Notes under the pieces: model-generated | Databases searched by the model: none | What the model was told of the DNA's origin: nothing | The model's input: only the letters and a program-made list of their open reading frames with translations | Assembly (NCBI RefSeq): GCF_003966335.1 | Contig: NZ_CP034549.1 | Span: forward strand, 540,001 to 572,000 | Origin: Nonlabens ponticola | GTDB lineage: Bacteria; Bacteroidota; Bacteroidia; Flavobacteriales; Flavobacteriaceae | Reading direction: 5' to 3' | DNA length: 32,000 nucleotides | Part shown: piece after piece, positions 5,463 through 29,361 of the stretch | Layout: the number at the start of each line of letters is the position of its first letter | Position numbering within the stretch: position 1 is the stretch's first letter | Position numbers and translations under genes: made by a program

Positions 5463-6509
5463 TTATGCCTTGTCTAGATATGCTTCATACATCATATCAA
5501 CACCTTTTTCTAGGCTCACCTCATGTTTCCAGCCTAGTGCGTGCAGCTTTGACACATCAGTCAACTTGCGTGGTGTGCCGTCAGGTTTTGAGCTGTCCCA
5601 ATTTAATTTGCCAGTGTAACCTACTGTTTTCTTGATCAATGCTGCAAGTTCCTTGATCTCGATGTCTTCACCAGTACCTATGTTTAGGTGTGTGTTTCTT
5701 ACCTCTTTTTGCTCGCCTGCAACGTCCTTAAAATCTATGTTGTGCATTAGATACACACAAGCTTTGGCCATATCGTGTGACCACAAAAACTCTCTTCTAG
5801 GCGAGCCTGTTCCCCATAATTCGATGCTTTCTTTTGTAATGCCGTGTTTGGATAGTTCCGCTTTCGCGAAAGCAAAATTCTCAACATCCATTTCCTTGAC
5901 AAGAGCTTGCTCGTTACCATCCATGAGTAATTTACCCAGGTGCATTTTCCTGATCAAAGCTGGCAACACGTGACTTTTTTCTAGATCAAAATTATCATTT
6001 GGGCCATACAGATTTGTAGGCATGACGCTTATGAAATTGGTGCCGTACTGCAAGTTATAGCTCTCGCACATCTTGATACCAGCGATTTTGGCAATGGCAT
6101 AAGGTTCATTGGTATATTCCAGCGGTCCAGTGAGCAAACTGTCCTCTGGCATAGGCTGTGGCGCCATTTTAGGGTAGATACATGTACTGCCCAGAAACAA
6201 TAATTTCTTCACGCCATTCAAGTAACTGTGATGGATCACATTGTTCTGGATCATCAAGTTCTTGTAGATAAAGTCTGCGCGATAGATGTTGTTTGCTACA
6301 ATGCCACCTACCGTCGCTGCGGCGAGAAAAACATAATCAGGCCTATGATCCTTAAAGAATTGCGCGGTTTGCTGCTGGTCTGTAAGATCTAGTTGCTTGT
6401 GCGTTCTCAAGATCAGGTTTTCATAGCCTTGATCCTTGAGCTCCTGTAAAATGGCGCTACCCACGAGACCGCGGTGACCAGCAATATAGATTTTGGCAGA
6501 TTTCTCCAT
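5463..6509 (-). CDS. fcl: GDP-L-fucose synthase (GDP-4-keto-6-deoxymannose 3,5-epimerase/4-reductase)
   Basis: 348 aa. Matches include [13 protein letters not shown] (Rossmann motif), [31 protein letters not shown] and KPDGTPRKL, which align closely with E. coli Fcl as I recall it. Confidence 0.95.
5860..5873. repeat. Iterated 14-bp palindrome GCTTTCGCGAAAGC, copy 1 (inside fcl)
   Basis: Exact match. Read in the gene frame as GCT TTC GCG AAA GCG, giving AFAKA ([11 protein letters not shown]). Confidence 0.95.
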
Positions 6510-6582
6510 TAGGTATTTTCTATAGACTTACTTGTCTCATGACAAAACTTCTTTTTATAAAGAAGATTGCATGGATATTGAT

Positions 6583-7698
6583 CTACTCATAGTAATTATT
6601 AATGCGGTAACCTCCTCTATTCAAATACTCGTCGCGAGACATGAGATGCAAGTCACTCTTCATCATGTCGTTGACCAGTTCTTGCAGTTCTATTTGTGGT
6701 ACCCAGCCCAGTTTTTCCTTGGCTTTTGATGGATCGCCTATCAATAGGTCTACCTCCGTTGGTCGGAAGTATCTCTCGTCCACTGCAATTACTTCCTTTC
6801 CTATTTCTAGCTGGTAATCAGGATTTGAGCAAGATTTTATGGTTCCCTTTTCATCAACTCCAGTGCCTGTAAATTCTAGCTCTACACCTATGTATTCAAA
6901 CGCCATGCGCACAAAATCACGCACGCTGGTAGTTTTTCCTGTGGCTATTACCCAATCTTCTGGCTCATCATGCTGCAGGATCATCCACATCATGCGAACA
7001 TAATCCTTCGCGTGACCCCAATCGCGCTTGGCATCCAGGTTTCCTAGATAACAGGTGTCTTGCAAGCCTTTGGCGATTTTAGAAACCGCACGAGTAATTT
7101 TTCTAGTCACAAACGTCTCACCGCGCACGGGCGACTCATGATTAAATAAGATACCATTACAGGCAAACATGCCATAAGCCTCGCGGTAGTTAACCGTTGC
7201 CCAGTAGGCATACATTTTGGCCACCGCATACGGGCTGCGTGGATAGAAGGGCGTCGTTTCTGACTGCGGTACTTCTTGCACCTTACCATAAAGCTCTGAT
7301 GTTGAGGCCTGATAGACGCGTGTCTTTTTTTCCATGCCTAGTAACCTCAGTGATTCTAGGATACGCAGGGCGCCTATACCATCCGCATTAGCAGTGTATT
7401 CTGGCATTTCAAAAGATACCTGCACGTGAGACATGGCCGCAAGATTGTAAATCTCATCAGGTTGGGTCTCGTTGATGATTCTTGTCAGGTTTGTAGTGTC
7501 AGTCAAATCGCCATAATGCAGGTGGAATTTGACATTTGCCTCATGCGGATCTTGATACAGGTGGTCAATACGGTCTGTATTGAAAAGGCTGGCGCGACGT
7601 TTTATACCATGAACGGTATATCCTTTCTTTAATAAAAACTCGCTCAAATAGGCACCGTCCTGACCTGTAACTCCAGTAATTAAGGCTACTTTACTCAT
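6583..7698 (-). CDS. gmd: GDP-mannose 4,6-dehydratase
   Basis: The track ORF runs to 7824, but homology starts at [23 protein letters not shown] (ATG at 7696-7698). The upstream extension would overlap rfbD. Conserved GMD motifs are present throughout ([27 protein letters not shown]). Confidence 0.93.
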
Positions 7699-7735
7699 GC
7701 TACTTTTCTTAACAATTCTAATGTGCGAAAATACA

Positions 7736-8578
7736 CTAACTCCTAGACTTATACCTTTCCAGAACTTCTTCAAGCGCGGTATCAATTGTTGGAATGTCAT
7801 AATTAAAGGTCCTTCTAATAGCATCAGTATTCATGACGCTGTACGACGGCCTACTTGCAGCAGTCTTGAATGAGCTTGTAGGATGTATGTTTTTAGGTAC
7901 GTTGGATTTTTGGGATATCGCTTTCGCGAAAGCATACCACGTCAACTCGCCTTGATTAGTATAATGATAAACACCGTGCTCGTCAGGATCATTCTCAACC
8001 AGATGGTTGATGAACAGCGCTACACTGTCTGCGCTGGTAGGCGACCCTAGCTGATTATCAACTACGTGCATCTCTTCTAGGTTATTTTCTAGCACCCATC
8101 GCATGAAATTCTTACCATGAGCAGCGTACAACCAGCTTATTCTAAAAATGTAAAAGCTGGACATGTTATCCTGGATATATTGTTCTCCCAGCAACTTGCT
8201 AGCGCCATACACATTAATAGGTCTCACGGCATCGTGCGGTCTATATGGTAGTGTGGCATTCCCGTCAAAAACATAGTCCGTGGAAAAGTGAATAAGCGTG
8301 ACCCGATGATGCTCGCAGATTTGTGCCAGCTGCCTGACTGCGGTGGCGTTTATTTTGTAGGCTTTCTCGACTTCAGTTTCTGCAAGATCCACTGCGGTGT
8401 AGGCCGCACAGTTGATAAAATAATTTGGCCGATACCTAATTATGGCTGCGGTAATATCTCTAGTACAGCTAATGTCAAGCTCGTCGCTGCCCAGCGCGAT
8501 CAAATCATGATCTACCAGCGCTTGTTGCATGCTTATTCCCAGCATACCATTTGCGCCAGCAAGTAGAATCTTTTTCAA
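7736..8578 (-). CDS. rfbD: dTDP-4-dehydrorhamnose reductase
   Basis: 280 aa with [12 protein letters not shown] (Rossmann motif), TDYVFDG and YGASKLLGE (the YxxxK catalytic motif), typical of RmlD. Confidence 0.88.
7920..7933. repeat. Iterated 14-bp palindrome GCTTTCGCGAAAGC, copy 2 (inside rfbD)
   Basis: Exact match, encoding AFAKA ([11 protein letters not shown]). Confidence 0.95.
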
Positions 8579-9685: not shown

Positions 9686-11413
9686 TTACGCATCTGGCGC
9701 AACAGGTTTTACAACGCTGTTTTCTAGAATTTGTTCTAGGATCTTTTCAGTAATTACATAAACTGGCTTTACACCTGTAAGACCTAAACCACCACTGGCA
9801 AGTGTATGGCCTGTTTTCAATGGATTATCGCTAGCATAATATGCATAACGCACTTTTACTTTCTTACTGATGCTGCGACGCACTTTGGATGCCGCTTGAA
9901 TCGCTTTTTGATAATGTGCACCTTCCATTTCAAGACCTATCACACGCCAGCTACTGTTGTAGAAGTATTCAAGTACATCCTTGTTTTGAAGAGAAGTTCC
10001 CAAAACAGTGACCATAGAGCCGCTCACGACGCTCAATCCATCTGTTTTGAGATCTTTTTTACTCAGTCTATTTTTAAATGGATAATTATCTGCCGTGCCT
10101 TCAAAAACGTGGGCATCTGGCACCATAATATCACCTTTCTCGCCTTCAAGAATTCCAGCTTTACCCATAATACTGATGGACTTGATATTCATCATTTTAT
10201 AATCATCCTTGCCGGCTTTGTAAGGTTTTAATAATTCATCCAGTGTTTCATAAGCCTGTTCTCCAAATGCGTAGTCCATAACTATGATGACTGGTTTTTG
10301 ATCTGTTCCGCTTTCGCGAAAGCTGTCTTCACAAAATCCTACCTGCTCAAATTGGAATCTCGCGGTATCAAATATCTGCACGTCAATATTAGTACCGCTC
10401 TCATCCTTGAGTTCTTGCATACCGTTCTTGAGCGCCATTTTCTTGATCACATCGCGGTTTTTCTTGCCTGCATCGTTACTCAAAGAAGCAAAAACTTCCA
10501 TTCTACCTTTTTTTTCCATTTCTGTTTTTAAGGCTTTGGGGCCATAAATGGAATTCATTACACTGTGCAAGTTGGCACTGATGATGTGCAGCGGTCGATC
10601 AAATAAATCATGATCGATCAAATGCTTTTTGATGCGTGTTGCCCAGCGATCACCATGAATATGGTGACCTAATCTCTCGCGTAATACGGGTGAAAATGTA
10701 ACGACACGCTTTTGCTCGTCCATAATCTCACGCTTGCCTAGCAATCCTAAATGGTAAATCGTACTCAAGAATTGATTAGGATTATGCGGCGTTGCAAAGT
10801 CATCATATACGTTCACGACCTCTTCAAAGGTTCTACCCAGAATATTTGCCGTGTGTGTTATGGCGACTTCTTTCTCTTCCTGGCTTAGTTTCTTTTTTTG
10901 AACGGCGTCTTCCAGACAATTCCAGTCTCTGGTCGTGTTGCCGTTCTCGCCAATAATCACGCGTTTCATGATCTTGTGAGATTCAATCATCAGGAATGTC
11001 AAGTGCGTGAGGATATCATAGATCTCTGATCTACCACGAGTGATCTCAATATTCATCTGGTGCTTATCGATGCGATAGCAGTTACGGCGGCGTTTTTTAG
11101 GAACAATCGCCTTGAAGTGGCTGCCAGAATAACCTTCATCACTGGTCAAATTGATATAGGTACATTCCTCGATGCCCATGGGCAATCGATCCATGACATA
11201 AAGCAAGCCACTCAACTCGATCTTATCCTCTGCAATGGAACCGTAGATTTCAGGACGTATGGTAAGCAGCGACTCGCGCAAGGATTCACCACTCACGCCC
11301 ATAGGCTTGTAAAATCCACGATTGAATAAGTGACGCATGGTGATATACATGCGCTCGATAGCATTGGTACTTTCTTGTGCTCTAGTTCTAGGCTCTACGT
11401 TAATGATGGGCAT
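9686..11413 (-). CDS. Uncharacterised conserved protein with a C-terminal AMP-nucleosidase / nucleoside-phosphorylase (PNP_UDP_1)-like domain
   Basis: 575 aa. The C-terminal ~200 aa contain IMGKAGILEG..GDIMVPDAH, VIGLEMEGAHYQKAI and YYASDNPLKTG. These parallel the E. coli AMP nucleosidase core (MIGHCGGL..GDYVLAHA, AIDMESATIAAQ, CVSDKPLHGE) as I recall it. I do not recognise the N-terminal ~370 aa. Confidence 0.6.
   Translation of the reverse strand: MPIINVEPRTRAQESTNAIERMYITMRHLFNRGFYKPMGVSGESLRESLLTIRPEIYGSIAEDKIELSGLLYVMDRLPMGIEECTYINLTSDEGYSGSHFKAIVPKKRRRNCYRIDKHQMNIEITRGRSEIYDILTHLTFLMIESHKIMKRVIIGENGNTTRDWNCLEDAVQKKKLSQEEKEVAITHTANILGRTFEEVVNVYDDFATPHNPNQFLSTIYHLGLLGKREIMDEQKRVVTFSPVLRERLGHHIHGDRWATRIKKHLIDHDLFDRPLHIISANLHSVMNSIYGPKALKTEMEKKGRMEVFASLSNDAGKKNRDVIKKMALKNGMQELKDESGTNIDVQIFDTARFQFEQVGFCEDSFRESGTDQKPVIIVMDYAFGEQAYETLDELLKPYKAGKDDYKMMNIKSISIMGKAGILEGEKGDIMVPDAHVFEGTADNYPFKNRLSKKDLKTDGLSVVSGSMVTVLGTSLQNKDVLEYFYNSSWRVIGLEMEGAHYQKAIQAASKVRRSISKKVKVRYAYYASDNPLKTGHTLASGGLGLTGVKPVYVITEKILEQILENSVVKPVAPDA
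10310..10323. repeat. Iterated 14-bp palindrome GCTTTCGCGAAAGC, copy 3 (inside the PNP-like protein gene)
   Basis: Exact match and the only copy in a different frame: AGC TTT CGC GAA AGC, giving SFRES. It lies in the apparent linker just before the PNP-like domain. Confidence 0.95.
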
Positions 11414-11547: not shown

Positions 11548-13044
11548 CTAGGGCTCATCAAAAAACTTCGCAATTTTCCTGTCGTTAGACAATCTGGGTA
11601 GCTTATTCTGACCTCCTAATTTGCCAATGCTTTTCATGTAGTTTTTAAAGCTGCCTTGTGGTAATATCCTAACTTTAAGTGGTTGCAGGACTTTACCAGT
11701 AATAAGATCATCGTAATAACTATTTTGCTCGCGCATCGCTAGATCTAGAGATGTGGCAAAATCTATTAGCGTTTTATCATCTGGAGCTTTTTCCAGCTCT
11801 AGAAACCACTCGTGATAAGGCAACTCACCAGTTGGTGTATCCAGCTGCGGTGCGACCGTGAATTCGTCAATGATGACATGGTGTTTTGTCGCAGCTTGAT
11901 TGAGTGCCTCTTCTACCTCTTTGCCTATCACATGCTCGCCGCTGGCGCTTATGTAATGCTTGATGCGGCCTGTGACAACTACTCGATAAGGTGCTGTGCT
12001 GGTAAATGCAATGGTATCGCCTATGTTGTACGCCCAAAGTCCTGCGGTAGTTGAGATAATCATCACATAATTGACGCCTATCTCTACCTGACCAATAGTT
12101 AATCGCGGTGGCCGCTCATCATAAAACTGATCTGCTGGTATGAATTCATAAAAGATTCCTGCATCAAGCAATAGCAGCATGCCTTTCTCATTCTGCTTGT
12201 CCTGATAGGCAAAAAAGCCTTCACTGGCTGGAAATAGTTCAATGGTATCTGGCTCGCGACCTATAAGTGATTTGAATTTGGCTCGATAGGGTTCAAAATT
12301 AACGCCACCATAAATAAGCAAATTAAATTCTGGGAAAACCTCGCCCACTTTCTTGCCTGTGCGTTGCACGATGCGCTCAAAATACATTTGTAACCAGCTG
12401 GGAATTCCTGAAATAACGCTCATTCGTTCTGGAATGGTCTCGTCGATGACGGCCTCAACCTTGGTTTCCCAATCGTCAATTAAGTTTGTTTCCCATGACG
12501 GCAGCCTGTTGCGCTGCAAATAGTTAGGCACATAATGAGCTACAATGCCGCTCAACCTACCTAGTTTGATTCCGTTTTTTTCTTCCATTTCTGGGCTTCC
12601 TTGCAGGAAGATCATCTTACCGTCCACAAACTTTGAATTGCCAGTCTCATGTATATAACTCAAGATAGCGTTGCGTGCCGCCTTGATGTGCTCTGGCATA
12701 GATTCTTTTGTAATTGGGATGTATTTGGCGCCGCTGGTAGTTCCACTGGTTTTAGCGAAATAAAGTGGTTTCCCTGGCCATAGAACGTCTTTATCGCCAG
12801 CTACCACTCGGTCGATAAAGGGCTTAAGGTCTTCATAGTCACGCACTGGAACGTTATCTGCAAACTCTTGATGTGTGGAGATGATTGAGAATGAGTGCGC
12901 TTTCGCGAAAGCGGTATCACCAGCCACCTTCAATAACATCTTAAATACATTTTCTTGAGAACGTACTGGATTTTGTGCCCATCGCTGGGTCTTGCGGTTT
13001 ACTCGTGCGGCAAAAACGCGCGCGGCAATGGCTTTAATCGACAT
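11548..13044 (-). CDS. GH3 (auxin-responsive promoter) family acyl-acid amido synthetase-like adenylating enzyme
   Basis: 498 aa with FAKTSGTTSGAKYIPIT (the GH3 nucleotide-binding motif) and the overall GH3 length and pattern. Its start overlaps the M23 stop (TAATG). Confidence 0.85.
   Translation of the reverse strand: MSIKAIAARVFAARVNRKTQRWAQNPVRSQENVFKMLLKVAGDTAFAKAHSFSIISTHQEFADNVPVRDYEDLKPFIDRVVAGDKDVLWPGKPLYFAKTSGTTSGAKYIPITKESMPEHIKAARNAILSYIHETGNSKFVDGKMIFLQGSPEMEEKNGIKLGRLSGIVAHYVPNYLQRNRLPSWETNLIDDWETKVEAVIDETIPERMSVISGIPSWLQMYFERIVQRTGKKVGEVFPEFNLLIYGGVNFEPYRAKFKSLIGREPDTIELFPASEGFFAYQDKQNEKGMLLLLDAGIFYEFIPADQFYDERPPRLTIGQVEIGVNYVMIISTTAGLWAYNIGDTIAFTSTAPYRVVVTGRIKHYISASGEHVIGKEVEEALNQAATKHHVIIDEFTVAPQLDTPTGELPYHEWFLELEKAPDDKTLIDFATSLDLAMREQNSYYDDLITGKVLQPLKVRILPQGSFKNYMKSIGKLGGQNKLPRLSNDRKIAKFFDEP
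12899..12912. repeat. Iterated 14-bp palindrome GCTTTCGCGAAAGC, copy 4 (inside the GH3 gene)
   Basis: Exact match that extends to the 16-bp palindrome CGCTTTCGCGAAAGCG. Encodes AFAKA (GDTAFAKAHS). Confidence 0.95.
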
Positions 13045-15282: not shown

Positions 15283-16776
15283 TTATTTTAAGACCAGCGT
15301 CATTCCTGGTTTTAGATTCTTAGAAGCCTTAGGGTTTAATCGCTTAAGTTCCTTGACGGTCATGTTATTGCGCCTAGATATTGCCCATAGGCTGTCACCA
15401 GATCGCACGACATAATTTTTGACCTTTGCCGTTTGCCTAGTTGCACCGGTCGTGGTGTTAATTTTAAGACGCTGCCCAATTGTCAATTTATTGCTGCGTA
15501 GGCGATTCCATCTTTTGATTTCGGAAACCCTAACATTATATCGTGCTGCGATTTTACCTAGATAATCACCGCTGCGCACCCTATAAGTAATGCTGGTTGA
15601 TGGCTTGAGAAGCTCTGGTAATGGTTGTTCTCTTTTTTCAAATTCTGCTTTCGCGAAAGCGTAAACCTTATCCTCATTACCTGCAATAACGGCAACCTGC
15701 TCTATAGGTAGCCTCAAATAATGTGGTTTGCCTTGCTCTATAGGTATGATTCCCAATTTGTAACTAGGATTAAAAAACTCGATGGTTTCCTTGTCAATGT
15801 CTAGCTGGCTCTCGATTTGATCAAAGGAGATTTGATTCTTAATCAGGACCGTATCAGTCTCCATCATAAGCCTAGAAGTGCGCTGTGGTTTAAAGCCATG
15901 CTCTTGGGCATATGTGAACAAATACATCATCGCCTGGAATTTAGGCACGTAACCAGCAGTTTCCCTAGGTAAATGCGGTCGCAAATTCCAGTAATTTTTC
16001 TTGCCGCCACTACGGCGTATGGCTTTGTTGACATTACCAGCACCGCTGTTGTAAGCGGCGAGAGCCAGATCCCAATCATCATAAATGCTGTAGAGTCTGT
16101 TGAGATATTTACATGCCGCTATGGTTGATTTATTGGGATCCATGCGCTCGTCAACATAAGAGTTGACCTCGAGCCCATAACCTTTGCCCGTTGCATACAT
16201 AAACTGCCAGAGTCCGGTTGCACCTACTCTACTCTTTATTTTCGGATCCAGAGCGCTCTCAACAACGGCTAGATATTTCATCTCTAACGGTATGTCATAG
16301 CGATCCAGCTGCTCCTCAAACATGGGGAAATAATAATCACTAAGCGTCATGATGCGTTCTAGATACACACGCTTGTAGGTAAGTTGCTTTTTTATAAGCT
16401 GCTCAAGAATTGGGTTGTATTCAATATTAAAAGGCGTGCGCTCATTTATGCGCTGTAATCTCGCCTTGAGCGTATCTGTGCTTAATGTTGAGTCACCTAC
16501 ATTAGGTAAGCTATCTATATTTTTAAATAAATACTCATAGCCATCATGATCATACAGCATGTCCATGTAGGCCTGATCAAATCGATCTACCTCTTCATAG
16601 TTCTTCATCACTAGTGAGTCCAGCGATTGCAAGGGATCGATTGCTCGATCAACGCTAGTCGTTTCCAGAAACTTGACACTATCCACGGCAACGACCATAG
16701 AGTCTGTAACCTGCCCTTGCATCAATGCGCAGGACAACAGGATAAAGAGTGTCCACATTTTCTTGAGGTACATCAT
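15283..16776 (-). CDS. Membrane-bound lytic murein transglycosylase D-like protein (SLT domain plus two LysM domains)
   Basis: 497 aa with a signal peptide, the SLT catalytic region VVESALDPKIKSRVGATGLWQFM...AAYNSG, and two C-terminal LysM repeats (YRVRSGDYLGKIAARYNV..., YVVRSGDSLWAISRRNNM...). Confidence 0.88.
   Translation of the reverse strand: MMYLKKMWTLFILLSCALMQGQVTDSMVVAVDSVKFLETTSVDRAIDPLQSLDSLVMKNYEEVDRFDQAYMDMLYDHDGYEYLFKNIDSLPNVGDSTLSTDTLKARLQRINERTPFNIEYNPILEQLIKKQLTYKRVYLERIMTLSDYYFPMFEEQLDRYDIPLEMKYLAVVESALDPKIKSRVGATGLWQFMYATGKGYGLEVNSYVDERMDPNKSTIAACKYLNRLYSIYDDWDLALAAYNSGAGNVNKAIRRSGGKKNYWNLRPHLPRETAGYVPKFQAMMYLFTYAQEHGFKPQRTSRLMMETDTVLIKNQISFDQIESQLDIDKETIEFFNPSYKLGIIPIEQGKPHYLRLPIEQVAVIAGNEDKVYAFAKAEFEKREQPLPELLKPSTSITYRVRSGDYLGKIAARYNVRVSEIKRWNRLRSNKLTIGQRLKINTTTGATRQTAKVKNYVVRSGDSLWAISRRNNMTVKELKRLNPKASKNLKPGMTLVLK
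15647..15660. repeat. Iterated 14-bp palindrome GCTTTCGCGAAAGC, copy 5 (inside the MltD-like gene)
   Basis: Exact match, encoding AFAKA (KVYAFAKAEF). Confidence 0.95.
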
Positions 16777-18061: not shown

Positions 18062-18065
18062 CAAT

Positions 18066-19684: not shown

Positions 19685-19801
19685 GGAAATAATATAGTTT
19701 TTTACTATTTCAAACTGCACATTGCGATGACTTTAGAGAACGTTTTAGAGCTTTAAATTATCAAACATACACTAAATCCGAAATGGTTCGTCAAAACGCC
19801 T

Positions 19802-20638
19802 CTATTGTGCTTTTTTGAAGATGTAAATATGCGAAGATGCTTGATTGGTGAAAATCGTAGCAATATTTGAAAATAAACCTATGATTCCGCCTATGACTAA
19901 TGGAAGCGGCCATTTTTTATATCGCGCTGATAAAATAGAGACATAGAAACTATCAAGCCACATAACTTTTGTATTGACCAATTCAAACTTACCATCAAAA
20001 ACTGATTGAATACCGTTTTTATCAAAATGCCACAAATGCCTAGGAACATCCCACGCGGCCCAATACTTACCGAATAATTTTGCGTCTAGGGATTTATGAT
20101 TAGGAACCGCAATAATTACATGACCATCTTCCTCTACAATTTTAGATAAATAGTGTAATTGCTCACTTAAATCCTCAACATGCTCTAGGACATGAAACAT
20201 GGTAACCACTCGATAGGATTTTATTTGAGCATCGGGTAGCTCATCCAGCAGCTGAATCCCTTTTTGATAAGCAAACTTTCGCGCAAGCGGGCTAGGCTCA
20301 AAACCAATTGCATCAAATCTATTTTCTCTCAAATAGGAAACTAGCTCACCGTTGCCCGCTCCAATATCTAACATTGGACCTTCTGGCAAGTATTTACTGA
20401 TCAAAGATTTTTTGCTATTAAGATTCCAATTCCTTGCTGTCTTATATAAGCTTGCAAATAATCCTGTGTTAGAGTCGTCATGACTCAAGTATTCATCACT
20501 TTGATAATACTTGTCCAGGTTTGATGGAATAGGCATGGTTTTCAGCAAACCATCAATTGTAGTTTTGACAATATCAAAATGCTCTTGAGTCAAAAAATAA
20601 TCCTGGGTACTGCTATGTAGTTTCTTTTTTTTGCTCAT
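19802..20638 (-). CDS. Class I SAM-dependent methyltransferase
   Basis: 278 aa with motif I MLDIGAGNGELVSYL and a downstream VVTMFHVLEHV. Last gene of the mnmG operon. Confidence 0.8.
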   Translation of the reverse strand: MSKKKKLHSSTQDYFLTQEHFDIVKTTIDGLLKTMPIPSNLDKYYQSDEYLSHDDSNTGLFASLYKTARNWNLNSKKSLISKYLPEGPMLDIGAGNGELVSYLRENRFDAIGFEPSPLARKFAYQKGIQLLDELPDAQIKSYRVVTMFHVLEHVEDLSEQLHYLSKIVEEDGHVIIAVPNHKSLDAKLFGKYWAAWDVPRHLWHFDKNGIQSVFDGKFELVNTKVMWLDSFYVSILSARYKKWPLPLVIGGIIGLFSNIATIFTNQASSHIYIFKKAQ

Positions 20639-20654
20639 TGTTTCACGTGAAACT
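20639..20654. promoter_or_regulatory. parS: parS-like centromere site (15/16 match; inner 14 bp perfect)
   Basis: TGTTTCACGTGAAACt versus consensus TGTTNCACGTGAAACA. It fills the 14-nt gap between the mnmG stop and the methyltransferase start. Confidence 0.7.
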
Positions 20655-22524: not shown

Positions 22525-22525
22525 A

Positions 22526-22945
22526 TCATTGTTTCACGTGAAACATTTGCATCTTCTGCGATTCCAATAGTCTCATTTTGGCAGACTCTTCGTCGGTCTT
22601 ATCTCCATAACCTATCATGTGTAAAAGACCATGAACCATGACTCTTCTTAACTCGTCATCTTGACTGACATTGTAGATGAAAGCATTCTCATTTACACGA
22701 TCCGTAGAAATGTATATCTCGCCTTCCAAAACATCATCTACCGAATAATCAAAAGTGATAATGTCCGTAAAGGTATCATGATTCAAGTGCTGTTGATTAA
22801 TGTCCAACAAGAACTCGTCACTACAAAAAACATAATTCAATGACTTGATAGAGCAATTCTCACTATCTGCAACACGATTCAACCACTCAATGTAATTCTT
22901 CGGAGAGGAGAATTCAAAGTTGTTCTGCGAATCAAACTCAATCAT
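22526..22945 (-). CDS. ybeY: rRNA maturation endoribonuclease YbeY
   Basis: 139 aa with the HGLLHMIGYGD metal-binding motif. 8-nt overlap with the upstream gene and a 1-nt gap to mnmG. Confidence 0.9.
   Translation of the reverse strand: MIEFDSQNNFEFSSPKNYIEWLNRVADSENCSIKSLNYVFCSDEFLLDINQQHLNHDTFTDIITFDYSVDDVLEGEIYISTDRVNENAFIYNVSQDDELRRVMVHGLLHMIGYGDKTDEESAKMRLLESQKMQMFHVKQ
22530..22545. promoter_or_regulatory. parS: parS centromere site (16/16 match to consensus)
   Basis: TGTTTCACGTGAAACA, a perfect 16-bp palindrome. It encodes the last residues of YbeY (M-F-H-V-K-Q) and ends 5 nt before the mnmG ATG. Confidence 0.85.
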
Positions 22946-25900
22946 TGGTTTTGAAATAGGATTTCACCTTACCCTTGTATTGTGGTTGCAAAGGTAATAC
23001 TTGTCTATTGAGTATTTCTTTGTTCTCAAAGTATCTCTGTATAGTGGCATCCAGCTGTGAAGCGGTATTGATATACTGGCGCTGGTTTGCATTTGATTGA
23101 CGTTGCTCGTCCTTTCCTTGTTCAAGGTTTGCATCTTTGAGCTTGAGCAAATCATACAAGATCTCAGACATCTCATTTTGCACATCGCGGTTGAACCCTT
23201 GATCCAGCAACTTACGTTCCACACCTTTCATCTGATCGCGTATCTCATCCACCTTTTGCTGCAAGCCTTCATCAATAATCATATCTTCTAACTGATTGCG
23301 CAATTCTTGTTGTTGTTTGTAAATTTCGTAAATACGCTGACTTTCCTCTTCAGACTCTTGATAAGACTGCTTGTCGCCATTTAAGCCTTCACCAGATCCA
23401 TTCCCATCTCCATTACCTTGACCTGTTGATCCATTAGTACCATTTTGACTTTCGGATCCTTGACCTTGTCCGTTTTCTCCTTGTTGACCTTGCCCAGCCT
23501 GGCCTGGATTTCCTGATTGACCTGCTTGCCCGTTCTCGCCCGATTGACCAGAACCTTGTCCAGATGTGCCTTGACTGCCATGTGATTGCCCTGATCCACT
23601 CGTGCCACTTTCACCTTGCTGGCCTGGTGCGCCACTATTGCCCGGCTTTCCTTCTCCTGGTTTATCACCTTTGCCGTCACCAGGCTTTTCTCCATCGCCA
23701 TCGCCTTCTTTCTCTCCTTCACCTTTTTTTTCACCTAGGCTTTTTTGTTTCTTAATAATATCTGGCAATTGGAATCCAGCGCCTTGACCTCCTTTTTGAG
23801 GTTTACCAGGAATAGCTGGAGAGTTAAGCTGATCAAGCACACCGCTTAACATCGCGGCAAGTGCATTTGCCCCTTTGAGACTTGATTGCTGTGACACCTG
23901 TCCAGCCGGTATATCAAGATCACCCAATCTTTCTAAGGATTTTTCAAGATTGTAGTAGATATCTATCACCTCTTTATTGATCTTCTCACCTACCTCAGGA
24001 TTGCGGGTACTTAACGAAAACAAGCTATCATCCACGTGCTTAAAAACAGTCTCGAGCTCTTTTTGTAAACGCAACGTCTTGCCATAAGATAGGCTATTGG
24101 CGGTGATACTTTTTACCTCATCGAGTAAATCCTCTTGCTCTTGAGAGAAAACAATTAGGTTGTCCAATACCTGACGTAAAGATTCGGCATCCTCTTCCTT
24201 TGCCTCAGCCTCCATGCTTTGCATATCTTTTTGCATCTTGGCAGCTTGCTTTTTCATAAGCTGTGCTGCCTTACTTTGATTGTCTTGTGCATCCTTAGGT
24301 GACGCCTTTTCCAAATCGTCCGTTGCCTGTTGCTGCTCATCCTTGATCTCATCACCATCTTCTGGATAAAAATCGAGATTCATGTCTTGCTTGAGGTCCT
24401 CATTCTCCTTTTCCAGGTCTCTAAGTTCCTGTTCCCATTTCTTGTATTCCTCATTGAGTATCTCTTGCGCTTCCTTAGTATTAGTAGCATCACTTTTTTT
24501 GGATAACTCTTGTTGACGCTGCGCTATTTCTTGTAACTTCTTACCTAATTGCTCGAACTTTTGGGCAACATAATAGCGCTTAGTCAACTCCAACAATTGC
24601 TCTAGACTGCGCTGTTGTTGCTTAGTGTTTTTTTGTGCCTTTTGTAATTCTTCCTGCAATTCTTCTTTGGATATCTTATCCTGATATTCCTCTAGTTGTT
24701 TGAGTAATTCTTCATTCTTTTTGGATTGCTTGACTGATTCTTGCATGCGCTCCTGTAATTGCTTTTTGCGCTCATCCGGCTCTGATGTTTTGTCAAGTTG
24801 CTTGTCTAGTTGTTTAAGTTGCTGCTGTATAGTTTTTTCCTGCTGCTGCTGTTTTTGTAGCGCTTGTTCAAGCTTACGCCTATCACTAAAGGATCTTGAT
24901 CGCTTCTCTATTTGCTCTTGAGACAGATTTTCTAAGGCTTTTTGCTCCTGTTTTTGCTCTTCAAGTGCCTTTTCAAGGCTGGAAAGCGATTGTTTCTGGT
25001 TCTTCAACTGTTCTTCTTGCTCTTGTGGCAATGTGGGCTGTGAGAATGTGAACGTTTGTGATTTTACAGACTTGTAATTGTGGATCGCATCATTGTCGAC
25101 AACTTCAAAATAGAGGCTGTACTCATGACCACGCTCTAATTGTACGTCGCCAGGAAAGCTTGTCAAGAATTGGTGAAAGGCAGCACCGCTGGAGAAGGCA
25201 ATCTTCTTGAGTTGCAATTCCTGTGGTTGATCATTTTTAAAATATACCAGATCAATGGATCTAAGGCCATAATCATCTGCGGCCTGTCCATTAAAATACA
25301 TCACACGCTCCTCGATGGAGTCTCGCTTCATTTCTACCTTTAACTCAGGAAACTCATCTGTGATGACTTCGAGATTAAAGTCCAATTGTTCATAGCCTGA
25401 TACATTCTCGTTGCTAGTACTTACGGTATAGGGTAGGTCGTTAAGTACCGCTTTCGCGAAAGCAAAATCATCACCAACCTTATCAAAATTGATAGCCTCA
25501 TCACCACCCGATTTGTATTGTACCAACTGTGTTGACAGCGCGCCAATGTTCCACGTGACCACGGTTCCCTGCGGTATTATAGCGTTACCGGTGCCGTTGA
25601 TCTTTTCATCTACTTTACCCGTATAATTAGGGTAGTCCAGCATCATGGTAAACTCACTGATGGTAGGAACGCTGTTTACCTGAAGCTTATAATCCATACT
25701 GCGCACATCGTTTGCAGCGATATAGAAATCAATATCATCTTCTGGGCGCTCAAAGTCAAATGTGTACGAGCTAGGCGATATTTGTGTCATGAAATATTCT
25801 TGACCGTCGTATAATATGCTTGCATTCTCTGGGAGCTTGTCACCTGTAACATTTACTTGTAACTGAAAGTTCGTTCCCTGCAGGGTCGATAAATCACCAT

Positions 25901-26501
25901 TGACTACCGTAAAAGTGAATGGCGCTGGTGGAATGTATTCATTAGAATAATCTACTACTCTACTGGCACTAGAGGTTAGCATCTCGTCATTATTGGTAAA
26001 GAAAATGGCTGCAATAATCACTAGCGGTATCGCGAGGTATTTTAAGTACTTCTTGTTACTGCCTAAATCAATGGCTAGTGAAAAAGGTATAGGCTTAAGT
26101 TCTTCACTCTTCTGATTGATACTAGCCCATGTGAGATCGTCATCGCCACCGCTAGAGTGCAACTGCAACACGTTGACCAGCTTGTCAGACACTTCTGGAA
26201 AATAATTGCCAATGATATTACTAGCATCTCTAAAATCGATGCCGCGAGCCAATCGTAGCAAACGCGCCAATGGAATAAAGACAAACTTGATTAAAAGTGC
26301 TAACTCTACAATGATAAACAACCAGAATAAAATGGTTCTTCCCAAGCTGCTGAGCCATAAAAAATGCTCTATTAGCGCGGTCGTGAGAAAATAAAGCAAA
26401 CCAATAGCAAGAAATAACAGCGCACCTCGCAACAGATCATTGAGGTAAAATTTACCTATGAACTTTTCAAGCTTTACCTGTATGATTTCAAAATTGCTCA
26501 A
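22938..26501 (-). CDS. Large membrane-anchored protein with N-terminal TM helices, a beta-rich region, a long K/E/Q coiled coil and a Gly-rich collagen-like segment (possibly DUF4175 family)
   Basis: 1187 aa. TM helices lie within aa ~25-80 and ~155-170. The heptad-like K/E/Q-rich region spans aa ~490-780 and the G-rich region aa ~923-1043. The family name is from memory and unverified. Confidence 0.7.
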   Translation of the reverse strand: MSNFEIIQVKLEKFIGKFYLNDLLRGALLFLAIGLLYFLTTALIEHFLWLSSLGRTILFWLFIIVELALLIKFVFIPLARLLRLARGIDFRDASNIIGNYFPEVSDKLVNVLQLHSSGGDDDLTWASINQKSEELKPIPFSLAIDLGSNKKYLKYLAIPLVIIAAIFFTNNDEMLTSSASRVVDYSNEYIPPAPFTFTVVNGDLSTLQGTNFQLQVNVTGDKLPENASILYDGQEYFMTQISPSSYTFDFERPEDDIDFYIAANDVRSMDYKLQVNSVPTISEFTMMLDYPNYTGKVDEKINGTGNAIIPQGTVVTWNIGALSTQLVQYKSGGDEAINFDKVGDDFAFAKAVLNDLPYTVSTSNENVSGYEQLDFNLEVITDEFPELKVEMKRDSIEERVMYFNGQAADDYGLRSIDLVYFKNDQPQELQLKKIAFSSGAAFHQFLTSFPGDVQLERGHEYSLYFEVVDNDAIHNYKSVKSQTFTFSQPTLPQEQEEQLKNQKQSLSSLEKALEEQKQEQKALENLSQEQIEKRSRSFSDRRKLEQALQKQQQQEKTIQQQLKQLDKQLDKTSEPDERKKQLQERMQESVKQSKKNEELLKQLEEYQDKISKEELQEELQKAQKNTKQQQRSLEQLLELTKRYYVAQKFEQLGKKLQEIAQRQQELSKKSDATNTKEAQEILNEEYKKWEQELRDLEKENEDLKQDMNLDFYPEDGDEIKDEQQQATDDLEKASPKDAQDNQSKAAQLMKKQAAKMQKDMQSMEAEAKEEDAESLRQVLDNLIVFSQEQEDLLDEVKSITANSLSYGKTLRLQKELETVFKHVDDSLFSLSTRNPEVGEKINKEVIDIYYNLEKSLERLGDLDIPAGQVSQQSSLKGANALAAMLSGVLDQLNSPAIPGKPQKGGQGAGFQLPDIIKKQKSLGEKKGEGEKEGDGDGEKPGDGKGDKPGEGKPGNSGAPGQQGESGTSGSGQSHGSQGTSGQGSGQSGENGQAGQSGNPGQAGQGQQGENGQGQGSESQNGTNGSTGQGNGDGNGSGEGLNGDKQSYQESEEESQRIYEIYKQQQELRNQLEDMIIDEGLQQKVDEIRDQMKGVERKLLDQGFNRDVQNEMSEILYDLLKLKDANLEQGKDEQRQSNANQRQYINTASQLDATIQRYFENKEILNRQVLPLQPQYKGKVKSYFKTND
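23373..23735 (-). repeat. Low-complexity Gly-rich, partly G-X-Y (collagen-like) coding repeat inside the 1187-aa CDS
   Basis: The translation reads GEGEKEGDGDGEKPGDGKGDKPGEGKPGNSGAPGQQGESGTSG...GENGQAGQSGNPGQAGQG...GNGDGNGSGEG. Degenerate triplet periodicity at the DNA level opens spurious ORFs in other frames. Confidence 0.8.
25450..25463. repeat. Iterated 14-bp palindrome GCTTTCGCGAAAGC, copy 6 (inside the 1187-aa protein gene)
   Basis: Exact match, encoding AFAKA (DDFAFAKAVLN). Confidence 0.95.
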
Positions 26502-27727: not shown

Positions 27728-27815
27728 AAAACATCTTGTTAGCTCCTAATCTATTACGCAATCCGTTCGTAACGACATAAGATCAACATCCCTTTTACTC
27801 GCGATAAGCATTCTT

Positions 27816-27823
27816 TATCTTTG
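27816..27823 (+). promoter_or_regulatory. Bacteroidota -7 promoter box TAtcTTTG upstream of gltX
   Basis: Exact TAnnTTTG match, 23 nt upstream of the gltX ATG. Confidence 0.5.
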
Positions 27824-27846
27824 CAATCTCAAAAAATTGCCTAGAT

Positions 27847-29361
27847 ATGACTCAAGATGTACGTGTAAGATTTGCTCCTAGCCCAACTGGGCCGTTGCAT
27901 ATAGGTGGTGTGCGCACAGCGCTTTTCAACTACCTGTTTGCCAAAAAACATAACGGCACTTTCATCCTACGTATTGAGGATACTGACCAGAATAGATATG
28001 TTCCTGGTGCAGAAGATTACATCATCGAGGCACTCAACTGGTGTAACATACCTTATGATGAAGGACCTGGAAAAGAGGCTAATTACGGTCCATATCGTCA
28101 AAGCGAGCGCAAGGATAGATACCGTGATTACGCCTTACAATTAGTAGAAAAAGGTGCTGCTTACTATGCGTTTGATACTGCTGAGGAACTTGCAGAAGCA
28201 AGACAAAAAGCAGAATCTAATAAGGAAACTTTTATCTACAACCATCACAACCGCGACCAGTTTACCAACTCATTGACACTATCCAATAACGAGGTGCGTG
28301 ATCGCATTGCATCTGGTGATGCCTATACCATACGTTTTAAGCCAGAGCTTAAGACGTTATTCATGCATGATGAAATACGCAAAGGCATTGAGATTGACAC
28401 AAGCTTACTGGATGATAAGGTGTTGTTCAAAAGTGATGGTATGCCTACCTATCACCTCGCGAATATTGTGGACGATCACGAGATGAAAATATCGCACGTG
28501 ATACGTGGTGAAGAGTGGTTGCCTAGTATGGCTTTGCACGTGTTATTGTATGAAAGTTTTGGTTGGGACGCGCCTAAATTTGCGCACTTACCATTGATCC
28601 TCAAGCCTACCGGTAAAGGAAAATTAAGCAAGCGCGATGGTGATAAGCTGGGTTTTCCTGTTTTCCCGCTAGCGTGGAATCCTGAAGTAGGTTCATCCAG
28701 TACTGGTTATCGAGAAGACGGTTATTTGCCTGAAGCCGTAATCAACATGCTTGCTTTTCTAGGTTGGAATCCAGGAACTGAGCAGGAATTATTTACCTTA
28801 AAGGAGCTTATTCATGCCTTTGACCTAGATAGAGTGAATTCATCAGGTGCTAAATTTGATCCTGAAAAAACTAAGTGGTTTCAGCAACAGTGGTTTGTGC
28901 AGCAGGACGATGCCGTCATAGGTTCCGCTTTCGCGAAAGCGTTACAAGAAAAAAACATCGACTACAAGTCACAGGATTATGTCAATATCATCGTTGGTCT
29001 GGTGAAAGAACGTGCCGTGTTTGTAGAAGACTTATTTGAACTCGCAGGCTTTTTCTTTACTGCACCTAAGGAATTTGATAACAAAGCTGCTTCAAAATCA
29101 TGGAAAGATGACACGAGCGACCTTATGCAACATGTTATTGATGTGATTCAAAAAGCAGGAGACACGACAGCATTAGAATTAAGCAATGCGGTAAAAGGCT
29201 GGATCAAGGAACAGGAAATGGGTTTTGGTAAGGTGATGATGCCGCTTAGACTATCGCTGGTAGGTAGCCTTATGGGACCCGACGTTTTTGAAATCGCGAG
29301 TATGATAGGTGTTGATGAGACAATTTCACGCATACGGTTTGCCAGCGAACAGTTAGGCTAG
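27847..29361 (+). CDS. gltX: Glutamate--tRNA ligase
   Basis: 504 aa with RFAPSPTGPLHIGGVRTALFNY (HIGH motif), RIEDTD and KLSKR (KMSKS motif). Confidence 0.97.
   Translation: MTQDVRVRFAPSPTGPLHIGGVRTALFNYLFAKKHNGTFILRIEDTDQNRYVPGAEDYIIEALNWCNIPYDEGPGKEANYGPYRQSERKDRYRDYALQLVEKGAAYYAFDTAEELAEARQKAESNKETFIYNHHNRDQFTNSLTLSNNEVRDRIASGDAYTIRFKPELKTLFMHDEIRKGIEIDTSLLDDKVLFKSDGMPTYHLANIVDDHEMKISHVIRGEEWLPSMALHVLLYESFGWDAPKFAHLPLILKPTGKGKLSKRDGDKLGFPVFPLAWNPEVGSSSTGYREDGYLPEAVINMLAFLGWNPGTEQELFTLKELIHAFDLDRVNSSGAKFDPEKTKWFQQQWFVQQDDAVIGSAFAKALQEKNIDYKSQDYVNIIVGLVKERAVFVEDLFELAGFFFTAPKEFDNKAASKSWKDDTSDLMQHVIDVIQKAGDTTALELSNAVKGWIKEQEMGFGKVMMPLRLSLVGSLMGPDVFEIASMIGVDETISRIRFASEQLG
28927..28940. repeat. 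Iterated 14-bp palindrome GCTTTCGCGAAAGC, copy 7 (inside gltX)
   Basis: Exact match that extends to the 16-bp palindrome CGCTTTCGCGAAAGCG. Encodes AFAKA (IGSAFAKALQE). Confidence 0.95.

Follow-up and report, generated by a model that had tools for sequence, protein, structure and literature searches.

Results

The window, a 32-kb stretch of Nonlabens ponticola DNA analysed as a whole, contains exact copies of the palindrome GCTTTCGCGAAAGC (n=7) versus 0.00 expected from 100 dinucleotide-preserving shuffles, which bears out the view of the earlier note on this DNA that seven exact 14-bp copies are beyond chance. Six of them are found in minus-strand genes: copy 1 at 5860..5873 in fcl, encoding GDP-L-fucose synthase (ORF 5463-6509), copy 2 at 7920..7933 in rfbD (ORF 7736-8578), copy 3 at 10310..10323 in the gene of a DUF6909 protein (ORF 9686-11413), copy 4 at 12899..12912 in a GH3-family gene (ORF 11548-13044), copy 5 at 15647..15660 in the gene of an SLT+LysM lytic transglycosylase (ORF 15283-16776), and copy 6 at 25450..25463 in the gene of an 1187-aa protein (ORF 22938-26501), for which a Pfam search gave no match. 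Copy 7 is in a plus-strand gene, at 28927..28940 in gltX (ORF 27847-29361). These hosts agree with the gene names proposed earlier. Six of the seven copies are read in codon phase 0 and encode AFAKA; copy 3, in codon phase 1, encodes SFRES. The near-neighbour count, named as a check in the earlier note, gave no one-mismatch copy in the window and a single two-mismatch copy, ACTTTCGCGCAAGC, at 20275. In the window, TTCGCGAA and the half-site GCTTTCG are confined to the full motif, while TCGCGA outside it has roughly its expected frequency, being neither enriched nor avoided. Canonical parS sites are present elsewhere in the window, and their sequence differs from the iterated palindrome.

The window is a sample of a genome-wide, lineage-specific palindrome that is hyper-abundant in Nonlabens and Dokdonia, with a copy about every 3-5 kb. 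Among 120 public 8-kb blocks with the 14-mer, 85 belong to Dokdonia, Nonlabens or uncultured low-GC Flavobacteriaceae; a block usually contains 1-3 copies. Since most pooled copies come from blocks chosen for holding the motif, density estimates rest on a few regions fetched by protein homology: three Nonlabens species have 4, 8 and 4 copies in 21.5 kb each, and three Dokdonia species have 8, 9 and 4 in 22.85 kb each. A genome would have about 600-1100 sites. Over-representation is about 10^5-fold under a zero-order model. No copies were found in syntenic DNA of the nearest relatives, Salinimicrobium, Patiriisocius and Rasiella, even allowing up to 2 mismatches. Nonlabens and Dokdonia appear to be non-sister genera, as judged by the similarity ranks of two proteins and not by phylogeny. 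In Dokdonia sp. R86516, blocks with the motif lie at 0.88, 1.38, 1.73, 2.15 and 2.82 Mb, along the whole chromosome; this spread, together with the different sequence of the parS sites in the window, speaks against the origin-proximal protein site of Noc, SlmA or MatP type suggested earlier. No description of the motif was found in the searchable literature, in line with the earlier note, whose author knew of none in Bacteroidota, and the signal is apparently undescribed.

Motif copies also occur at host-like density in a bona fide tailed-phage contig and in a provirus. The isolated lytic Nonlabens phage P12024S (35.7 kb) has 0 copies, a comparison made on the phage side alone with one isolate. 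The syntenic region of Nonlabens dokdonensis includes a gene for a DUF559 protein, of Vsr-like fold.

The unit is longer than the 14-mer, with a consensus of about TTnC-GCTTTCGCGAAAGC-GnAA. Most species have it as the 16-mer CGCTTTCGCGAAAGCG, which is complete in window copies 4 and 7, and the palindrome extends to 16-22 bp. C occupies position -1 in 84% of arms and T occupies position -3 in 67%, and lineages differ in dialect at position -2. Beyond this, about 25 nt on either side are strand-polar: on either strand, the 5'->3' run into the core is C-poor and G/T-rich. The GC skew of the arms reaches +0.54 at 6-10 nt and is about 0 past 30 nt, and both arms are skewed at 114 of 155 sites. For window copies 1 to 7, the arm skews are +4/+7, +5/+5, +3/+6, +8/+7, -2/+7, +6/+7 and +3/+2, respectively; background copies in unrelated genomes have no arm skew. 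The architecture is alike in Nonlabens and Dokdonia. The skew extends to non-synonymous positions and amino-acid composition, the depletion in the flanks being about equal at codon positions 1 and 3 and amino-acid usage being shifted. The earlier description of flanks sharing at most 1-4 nt overlooks the 16-22-bp palindrome, these 25-nt polar flanks and the codon-phase bias. No conserved arms were seen past about 4 nt, real arms pair with each other no better than chimeric ones, the hairpin has only about -4 kcal/mol (z about 0), and no Rfam family corresponds to the motif. T-rich sequence lies upstream of it and A-rich sequence downstream, the reverse of a terminator.

Copies repel each other and lie at least about 0.85 kb apart. 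The smallest distance between two copies is 856 bp, and none of 69 intervals is <800 bp versus 14.9 expected (0/2000 simulations); the mode of the intervals is 2-3 kb and close pairs are absent. The reading GCT TTC GCG AAA GC(G), Ala-Phe-Ala-Lys-Ala, accounts for 55% of genic copies, and the other two frames (RFRES, xLSRKR) for 45%. About ten copies are placed exactly at the end of N-terminal signal peptides. That copies are always genic holds for the window, where long ORFs enclose 7/7, but not clade-wide, where about a quarter have no long ORF around them.

Comparison with orthologues shows that the copies were not inserted, and that they were written by point substitutions over resident sequence at tolerant sites, mostly in the AFAKA frame. 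Motif-free orthologues align across the site without gaps, and resident codons for EFGKD, DFARE and GYAQA are changed to AFAKA via point substitutions, with 5-6 changes per site in codon alignments, the replacement of a conserved Gly among them. At copy 1, fcl aligns without gaps to EEAKN/EEAKE of PDB orthologues, and at copy 7, gltX aligns likewise to P-EFKKV-L of PDB 6b1z. The outgroup has GAT TTT GCC AGA GAA (DFARE) at copy 2 and GGG TAT GCC CAG GCA (GYAQA) at copy 5. At copy 4, T-AFAKA-H is found in 50 of 120 homologues, versus a conserved T-EFGKD-H in outgroups, and at copy 3 the outgroup sequence is unrelated, with a 2-codon gap nearby. The gap-free alignments and the absent arm-to-arm pairing uphold the previous exclusion of a MITE/REP element or a duplicated segment.

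Once written, copies are kept unchanged at orthologous positions. With 70-83% nucleotide identity in the sequence around them, orthologous copies still agree at every position, the synonymous ones included, and flanking synonymous sites drift while the copies stay identical; the synonymous positions of the motif are invariant, contrary to the codon preference of the genome. Orthologous copies were located for copy 1 in a Nonlabens MAG (L038) and in N. dokdonensis (L162:20158), for copy 2 in N. marinus (L161:15268) and N. dokdonensis (L162:15799), for copy 3, as RFRES, in the same two species (L161:12888 and L162:12698), and for copy 5 again in both (L161:7380 and L162:5560). Pooled copies are distributed as 133 exact, 12 with one mismatch and 14 with two. 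The one-mismatch copies retain typical flanks and are therefore decayed true sites.

Discussion

Our best explanation, held with somewhat less than even confidence, is that a homodimeric DNA-binding or DNA-processing protein of high sequence specificity recognises the palindrome, and that selection or recombination-coupled drive may retain the sites as a self tag of resident chromosomal DNA. The determinant of this protein would be transferable, because two apparently non-sister genera share the element and their nearest relatives are without it. A signal for DNA uptake and/or recombination, working like DUS/USS or Chi, is favoured, and is unproven. Processing at the dyad would give single strands with 3' ends that are G/T-rich over their last ~25 nt, a composition preferred by RecA. 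The polar flanks might then be selected for such G/T-rich 3' tails, or be the mutational trace of short-patch resynthesis that has run 5'->3' from the site again and again; the skew has at least two other readings, as a mutational by-product or as the contacts of a spreading or wrapping protein. Several points count against an uptake signal: to our knowledge, neither Nonlabens nor Dokdonia is known to be naturally transformable, and we know of no system in which an uptake sequence is cut; moreover, known uptake sequences and Chi are asymmetric and of 5-12 nt, not 14-22-bp palindromes. The literature makes such a signal plausible: TGG/GT-rich DNA similar to Chi is preferred by RecA (PMC3763553), Riemerella columbina, of the Flavobacteriaceae sensu lato, combines natural competence with a preference for DNA of its own kind (PMC7965970), and a helping role in transformation is now argued for HIP1 (bioRxiv 10.64898/2026.06.24.733823).

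It has also to be considered that the sites organise the nucleoid. A dimeric chromosome-structuring protein would bind the palindrome in the manner of Noc, SlmA, MatP or ParB, or of the HIP1 role suggested by Xu et al. 2018, selection would keep a regular array, and the flanks would reflect spreading or wrapping. The operator-like size and exact conservation of the palindrome, its regular spacing, its genome-wide spread and the copy-free lytic phage all fit, and the periodicity of HIP1 has been interpreted likewise (PMC5861425). We nevertheless regard this as unlikely, if with an appreciable chance of being right. The number of sites far exceeds that of known occlusion or partition sites, the motif is restricted to neither origin nor terminus, conserved copies exist in circulating phage genomes, and proteins that bind or wrap the duplex do not normally read strand-polar base composition. 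Furthermore, with two non-sister genera and motif-free nearest relatives, the protein and hundreds of sites would have to be acquired together, which is harder without drive.

The sites may, on the other hand, have no function. An orphan or restriction-modification methyltransferase acting on the TCGCGA/CGCG core, with site-specific nicking or very-short-patch-type repair, would convert near-sites and restore decayed copies, and repeated 5'->3' patch resynthesis from nicks at the palindrome would imprint the polar skew. Both TCGCGA and CGCG do lie within the core, such gene pairs are mobile, in keeping with the patchy spread across genera, and the signs of all four base shifts in both arms follow from a polar patch model, as does a length scale of 20-30 nt with gradual decay. 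A methyltransferase link has been proposed for HIP1 (Elhai 2015, PMC4390886). The DUF559 gene of N. dokdonensis would suit this scheme as well; such genes are widespread, so it is not specific evidence. This seems quite unlikely to us, with a small chance of being correct. VSP-type repair, as far as it is known, corrects a single position within a site of 4-6 bp; to assemble or proofread a word of 14-16 bp from pre-sites with 3-7 differences is beyond it. Under a purely mutational drive, copies should be spaced at random, whereas repulsion is seen, and the flank depletion shared by codon positions 1 and 3, the shifted amino-acid usage and the unremarkable frequency of TCGCGA outside the motif also argue against a by-product.

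It is very improbable that a product is under selection, be it the peptide AFAKA (e.g. as an AXA site for signal peptidase) or an RNA hairpin or terminator. Such selection would account for the majority frame and for the copies at signal-peptide ends, but the frame distribution contradicts it, as do the invariant synonymous sites; in addition, about a quarter of copies lie outside long ORFs, the host proteins are unrelated, the RNA has neither an Rfam family nor significant structure, and the layout is that of a reversed terminator. Insertion of a miniature palindromic element (REP/MITE, or in-frame like the Rickettsia palindromic elements), suggested by many identical palindromic copies in coding sequence, is scarcely credible, being refuted by the gap-free alignments and at odds with the short conserved arms, their lack of pairing, the weak hairpin and half-sites that are never found alone.

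REP/BIME, MITEs and Rickettsia palindromic elements are likewise palindromic, repeated and dispersed, the last also in-frame in genes, but they arise by insertion and have conserved arms and stable stem-loops, none of which applies to the motif, and REPs are extragenic. The parS, Noc-binding, SlmA and MatP sites are 12-16-bp palindromes bound by dimers, and parS and NBS have TTTC...GAAA arms in common with the motif; however, the spacer between TTTC and GAAA is 4 bp in parS and 2 bp in the motif, canonical parS lies elsewhere in the window, and these sites are regional, at 1-70 per genome versus roughly 600-1100 genome-wide. Chi resembles the motif in its frequency of about one per 5 kb and in marking chromosomal 'self' DNA. 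It differs in being asymmetric, of 5-8 nt, read as single-stranded DNA and co-oriented with replication, and a 14-22-bp palindrome is beyond anything we know of for RecBCD or AddAB. Chi is G/T-rich, a kind of sequence favoured by RecA (PMC3763553), and the motif arms would yield 3' tails of this composition that end at the site.

HIP1 and the DUS/USS, chosen as analogues in the earlier note, proved to be the right ones. HIP1 (GCGATCGC) of cyanobacteria is a hyper-abundant palindrome across the coding and non-coding DNA of one lineage, laid over genes by substitution with a reading-frame preference, conserved at orthologous sites, absent from some related lineages and of unresolved function. 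Its conservation at orthologous sites implies selection (PMC5861425). It is unrelated to the motif in sequence and phylum, has 8 bp instead of 14-16 bp (about 22 with soft flanks), and is over-represented 15-300-fold rather than about 10^5-fold. The motif further differs in having next to no mismatched neighbours and no known cognate methyltransferases. We know of no report of polar 25-nt compositional flanks or short-range copy repulsion for HIP1.

Neisseria DUS and Pasteurellaceae USS also run to hundreds or thousands of copies and occur in either orientation; many are genic, at tolerant positions and in preferred frames, and they arise by point mutation and persist at orthologous sites. The spacing of USS is reportedly just as even, and more so than random. 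However, DUS/USS are asymmetric, of 9-12 nt, with one-mismatch copies being common; the flanks of USS are AT-tracts, not strand-polar keto/amino skews, and competence and a receptor have been demonstrated there. In these systems as in the motif, the core and its compositional flanks form a unit longer than the core, and the signals are lineage-specific with dialects, at position -2 in the motif. Taken together, the motif is HIP1/DUS-like in behaviour and a member of neither family.

Results

The palindrome GCTTTCGCGAAAGC was found in seven exact copies in the window, at positions 5860, 7920, 10310, 12899, 15647, 25450 and 28927, against 0.00 copies in dinucleotide-preserving shuffles of the same sequence, so the claim of the earlier note that they lie beyond chance holds. 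All seven fall within long ORFs, defined by length alone, which correspond to fcl, rfbD, a DUF6909 gene, a GH3-family gene, an SLT+LysM transglycosylase gene, the gene of a 1187-aa protein and gltX; fcl, rfbD, GH3, gltX and others were thus re-identified as first named. No one-mismatch copy is present in the window, and the single copy with two mismatches, at 20275, is without skewed arms (the ~25 nt on each side of the core) and looks like a chance occurrence. Neither the 8-mer TTCGCGAA nor the half-site GCTTTCG occurs in the window outside the full palindrome, and therefore the 14-mer is the unit; its perfect palindromic core spans 14-16 bp. The codon phase had been overlooked: six of the seven copies are in phase 0, where GCT TTC GCG AAA GC(N) is read as AFAKA, and the remaining one reads SFRES.

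Two stretches of the window are free of copies. The first (1-5859) is a polysaccharide-biosynthesis cluster at the left end, and the second (15661-25449) comprises 9.8 kb of core genes, including pgk, holB, a methyltransferase gene, mnmG and ybeY. Two canonical parS sites, one with a single mismatch (20639-20654, TGTTTCACGTGAAACT) and one perfect (22530-22545, TGTTTCACGTGAAACA), flank mnmG/gidA (20653-22524), which suggests that the window is probably close to the replication origin. The 14-bp core of parS, GTTTCACGTGAAAC, is the sole other repeated long palindrome in the window, and no second repeated long palindrome was found in the clade or in the outgroups. In the syntenic locus of N. dokdonensis (L162), a 122-aa DUF559/MTES_1575 protein with a Vsr-like endonuclease fold is encoded between holB and pgk (2006-2374); neither the syntenic window nor N. 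marinus has this gene. This protein, a member of a widespread family, could be a lead to a nicking or repair partner.

An exact scan for the 14-mer in one genome per species, covering 185,579 species, returned at least 120 blocks of 8 kb. Among the 120 listed, 33 belong to Dokdonia, 24 to Nonlabens and 28 to uncultured low-GC Flavobacteriaceae-like MAGs; Aquimarina, Leeuwenhoekiella, Altibacter and Flavobacterium contribute a few singletons, and the remainder are singletons from unrelated, mostly high-GC taxa. Blocks from the clade usually hold 1-3 copies per 8 kb. On one complete Dokdonia chromosome, motif blocks lie at 0.88, 1.38, 2.15 and 2.82 Mb, with another region at 1.73 Mb, which makes the motif genome-wide rather than origin-proximal. 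The reading of it as an origin-proximal protein site, proposed earlier, does not fit.

Density was estimated from regions fetched by protein homology, independently of the motif. Stretches of 21.5 kb contain four exact copies in N. marinus, eight in N. dokdonensis and four in a mostly non-syntenic N. tegetincola-like contig, and stretches of 22.85 kb contain eight in Dokdonia sp. R86516, nine in D. donghaensis and four in D. pacifica. The syntenic regions of Salinimicrobium tongyeongense (21.5 kb), Patiriisocius marinus and Rasiella rasia (22.85 kb each) hold no exact copy and none at ≤2 mismatches. Motif-rich relatives thus carry 4-9 copies per ~22 kb versus about 1e-4 expected, and the homology-fetched regions hold ~1 copy per 2.5-5.4 kb. 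Extrapolation from seven such regions plus the window, itself chosen for its seven copies, gives several hundred to about a thousand copies per genome. By similarity rank, the closest GH3 proteins outside Nonlabens are those of Salinimicrobium, and the closest GcvP proteins outside Dokdonia are those of Patiriisocius, Rasiella, Aureisphaera and Altibacter, so that, on these ranks and not on a tree, the two motif-rich genera appear to be non-sister, each nested among motif-free relatives.

An uncultured Aquimarina block (L110) has copies at 157 and 1090, 933 bp apart and with typical flanks, one of them of the signal-peptide type described below; blocks L071, L107 (Altibacter) and L101 were noted beside it. 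The Aquimarina pair with its typical flanks suggests that the motif system may reach further genera, at lower density or in some species only.

Alignments with motif-free orthologues are free of gaps. In fcl, NF-AFAKA-EL stands opposite SI-EEAKN-YL and NF-EEAKE-YL of solved orthologues, and in gltX, GS-AFAKA-LQ is aligned to LP-EFKKV-LA. The T-EFGKD-H conserved in outgroup GH3 proteins is T-AFAKA-H in 50 of 120 homologues (most Nonlabens), with intermediates such as AFGKA in a few species. In codon alignments, GCT TTC GCG AAA GCG takes the place of outgroup GAA TTT GGA AAA GAT, GAT TTT GCC AGA GAA or GGG TAT GCC CAG GCA. Lineage-specific gains were seen in PGK of N. dokdonensis, from E/G/D-FAK-K/Q, and in GcvP of part of Dokdonia, where the pre-site is GTT TTT GCA AAA GC. 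These gains include the synonymous changes TTT->TTC and GCA->GCG, contrary to the preference of the genome for A/T-ending codons, and the force therefore acts on DNA and not on the peptide. Such alignments indicate that the motif has replaced resident gene sequence and has not been inserted. A mobile element or insertion is excluded by the gap-free alignments and the unconserved arms, and REP, MITE or Rickettsia palindromic elements by the lack of an indel between filled and empty sites and of any consensus past ~4 nt; on this point the earlier exclusion of a MITE/REP-type repeat was correct.

Once gained, the sites persist. N. dokdonensis keeps five of the window sites at orthologous positions and N. 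marinus keeps four, at ~70-76% nucleotide identity around them; synonymous sites vary in the flanks but are invariant in the motif. Two Dokdonia species have seven of eight sites in common at 70-83% identity. Between Dokdonia and Nonlabens, the randomly sampled blocks contained no orthologous genes. In pooled clade blocks, exact, one-mismatch and two-mismatch copies number 133, 12 and 14, respectively. Fourteen one-mismatch copies from a larger pooled set retain typical flanks, and for one of them the orthologous site of a sister species is perfect; the one-mismatch copies are decaying true sites. Neighbouring copies repel each other: among 69 intervals the shortest measures 856 bp and lengths of 2-3 kb are the most frequent, and no interval is shorter than 800 bp versus 14.9 predicted by random placement in the same blocks, a result matched in 0 of 2000 simulations.

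Among copies in ORFs of at least 120 codons, 55 are in phase 0 (AFAKA), 23 in phase 1 (R/S-FRES) and 22 in phase 2 (x-LSRK-R/Q). A further 39 pooled copies have no long ORF around them, and the statement that the motif is always inside genes is thus true of the window and not of the pooled set. About ten phase-0 copies fall precisely where an N-terminal signal peptide ends, in the context …hydrophobic-AFAKA-Q/E/Y-SQQ… (for example, in pooled blocks, L026:4855, L100:6347, L015:5484, L089:1667, L057:5241, L103:3355 and L043:1303), where AFA is plausible as a signal-peptidase I site. The codons of signal peptides suit the polar flanks described below, being T-rich and hydrophobic upstream and A/C-rich and polar downstream. 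The frame bias looks like tolerance rather than function, and selection on the peptide is rejected by the existence of copies in all three frames and outside genes and by the invariance of synonymous sites.

Flanks were analysed in ~155 pooled copies (310 arms), most of them from blocks selected for holding the motif. Counting outward from the core, C occupies position -1 in 84% of arms, and T occupies positions -3 and -4 in 67% and 59%, respectively. The 16-mer CGCTTTCGCGAAAGCG accounts for all 16 copies in three other Nonlabens species and for only two of the seven in the N. ponticola window, where the outer pair is relaxed, with C at position -1 in only 9 of 14 half-sites. Dokdonia favours A at position -2 (TAC...GTA), a small difference between the groups. 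The variation in the outer pair and at position -2 looks like species dialects. Past ~4 nt from the core, no sequence consensus was found in the pooled arms. The earlier description of flanks sharing at most 1-4 nt missed a strong polar composition over ~25 nt: on either strand, the ~25 nt running 5'->3' into the core are C-poor (~8% versus 19%) and G/T-rich. GC skew of this in-running strand is +0.54 at 6-10 nt from the core, +0.52 at 11-15 nt, +0.45 at 16-20 nt, +0.33 at 21-25 nt and +0.12 at 26-30 nt, and about 0 beyond 30 nt. Both arms are skewed at 114 of 155 sites, as are 13 of the 14 arms in the window; the skew is seen in each of the three phases within genes and also outside genes, and its form is shared by the copies of Dokdonia, of Nonlabens, of the uncultured group and of viruses. 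No flank skew was seen in 31 background copies from unrelated genomes.

In coding copies, synonymous codon choice flips across the motif. NNY codons end in T in 88% of cases upstream and 49% downstream (background 71%), and four-fold sites carry C in 8% and 30% (background 18%) and G in 21% and 4% (background 14%), respectively. Amino acids are affected as well: upstream of the motif, D, E, V and F are clearly and G and M slightly enriched, with P, H and Q depleted, and the downstream side has more T, Q, H, I and P and less G, V and D. The depletion in the arms is about as strong at codon position 1 as at position 3.

The 16-mer also occurs in 40 IMG/VR stretches, several of which are low-GC contigs with 3-6 copies. 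One of them, L150 (IMGVR_UViG_3300039191_000376), which has genes for portal, HK97-type capsid, protease and tape measure, is a true tailed phage. Its copies, at 4579, 9059 and 14113, lie 4.5-5 kb from one another and are conserved in related viral contigs. L128 and L157 are further viral loci; one motif-bearing contig other than L150 has an isolate-genome provirus identifier. Motif density in L150 and in the provirus is host-like. The one isolated phage checked, P12024S of Nonlabens (Persicivirga) (L165, 35.7 kb), has no motif, even at two mismatches. No close isolated relative of the motif-bearing phage contig was found, the best match being 35% identical. Motif density might aid the separation of temperate from lytic phages or the assignment of hosts.

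Discussion

The element left to explain is dyad-symmetric and ~60-70 bp long, with an exact core of 14-16 bp. Its exactness, the lack of isolated half-sites, the operator-like size and an architecture common to both non-sister genera speak for recognition by a putative homodimeric, highly specific protein, and the on/off distribution in relatives speaks for a transferable determinant. Per-site selection, or a drive that resembles selection, is required for maintenance, and it fits the spacing of copies, the replacement of conserved residues and the near-equal replacement and silent effects in the arms better than plain mutational bias does. By analogy, the uptake-sequence-like combination of features favours a putative chromosomal 'self' tag for DNA uptake and/or recombination. 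If processed at the dyad, the DNA would have 3'-ended strands with ~25 G/T-rich terminal nt, and RecA is known to prefer G/T-rich sequence (PMC3763553), so that such ends would be of the preferred kind. Moreover, natural competence with a preference for own DNA occurs in Riemerella columbina, another member of the Flavobacteriaceae (PMC7965970).

Alternatively, the polar arms may be a by-product of repeated 5'->3' short-patch resynthesis from nicks in the palindrome, by which C->T damage would be fixed on the in-running template strand and erased on the out-running strand; this model predicts all four base shifts and a decay over 20-30 nt. Long-range resection after a break is disfavoured, since the skew is gone by ~30 nt. 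A one-directional replication-fork effect is rejected, as the same site is skewed on both arms. The flanks do not extend the palindrome into a longer hairpin or cruciform: arm complementarity of real sites equals that of chimeric ones, folding energy equals that of random genomic flanks, and the motif itself forms a hairpin of ~ -4 kcal/mol (z about 0). No intrinsic period-3 or trinucleotide pattern of the RecA or DnaA-trio type was found in the arms, where periodicity tracks codon phase and trinucleotides match composition.

Taking the 'self' tag up again in its most specific form, we tentatively suggest, while considering it rather doubtful as a whole, that Nonlabens and Dokdonia harbour a horizontally transferable system, unknown to date, in which a homodimeric protein would act on a 16-22-bp palindrome at roughly 600-1100 chromosomal sites, with strand-polar processing (nicking, cutting or strand loading) that leaves or requires the ~25-nt G/T-rich in-running arms. 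If true, this would be the first sequence-specific 'self' signal for uptake or recombination in Bacteroidota, and the first with a footprint in the codon and amino-acid usage of host genes. The polar flanks point to strand-specific processing, and the on/off pattern between sister genera makes the determinant traceable by simple phylogenetic profiling in model marine Flavobacteria that can be cultivated (Dokdonia sp. MED134, N. dokdonensis). A signal in the DNA can prevail over the conservation of a protein, as with the conserved Gly replaced in GH3, and can reshape local codon and amino-acid usage. The motif bears on annotation, on inference of recombination and HGT, on phage-host assignment and on genetic tools for Nonlabens and Dokdonia.

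Hyper-abundant genomic words such as DUS/USS, Chi, KOPS and HIP1 have each led to a DNA transaction system. To our knowledge, HIP1 is still unexplained after 30 years, and we know of no iterated signal with such core length and exactness, polar flanks that reach amino-acid composition or short-range repulsion. In line with the earlier note, which knew of no description in Bacteroidota, the motif string or an iterated palindrome in Nonlabens or Dokdonia was not found in open-access text.

Several known classes can be set aside. The window copies are intragenic, the pooled flanks are T-rich upstream and A-rich downstream, and the hairpin is weak, which rejects an intrinsic terminator; an RNA family is rejected by the same weak hairpin and the lack of an Rfam match in the window. 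TCGCGA outside the motif occurs at about the expected frequency in the window, giving no signal of restriction avoidance. REP, MITE and Rickettsia palindromic elements have a stable extended stem-loop that is lacking here. The parS and Noc NBS classes, the latter named earlier as an analogue, do not apply: the motif departs from their family consensus, few copies and origin or terminus restriction, canonical parS is separate in the window, and the TTTC...GAAA spacing differs from that of parS. The likeness to HIP1 and uptake sequences stands. Chi, which modulates RecBCD/AddAB, is short, asymmetric and co-oriented with replication, whereas the motif is a palindrome without orientation and, at 14-16 bp, too long.

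Like HIP1, the motif is abundant beyond composition in genes and spacers and conserved beyond neutral expectation, orthologous copies being identical at 70-83% surrounding identity; however, HIP1 is GCGATCGC of cyanobacteria and the motif is GCTTTCGCGAAAGC of Flavobacteriaceae. It is a second, independent iterated palindrome in another phylum, with specificity far above that of HIP1 (14-16 exact bases, ~10^5-fold over-represented under a zero-order model). A current preprint argues that HIP1 promotes transformation (bioRxiv 10.64898/2026.06.24.733823). With DUS/USS the motif shares hundreds or more copies, point mutation at tolerant sites, orthologous stability and even spacing, but DUS/USS have a short asymmetric core of 9-12 nt and the motif is a 14-16-bp palindrome. 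It thus behaves like HIP1 and DUS/USS, yet lies outside their definitions by sequence and shape. Taken together, the abundance of the motif, its substitution into tolerant sites with one frame preferred, its stability at orthologous positions, its even spacing, its soft-flanked core, and its presence in resident (pro)phages but not in a lytic phage form a combination that is closest to DNA uptake sequences, with Chi next and HIP1 as the only palindromic precedent.
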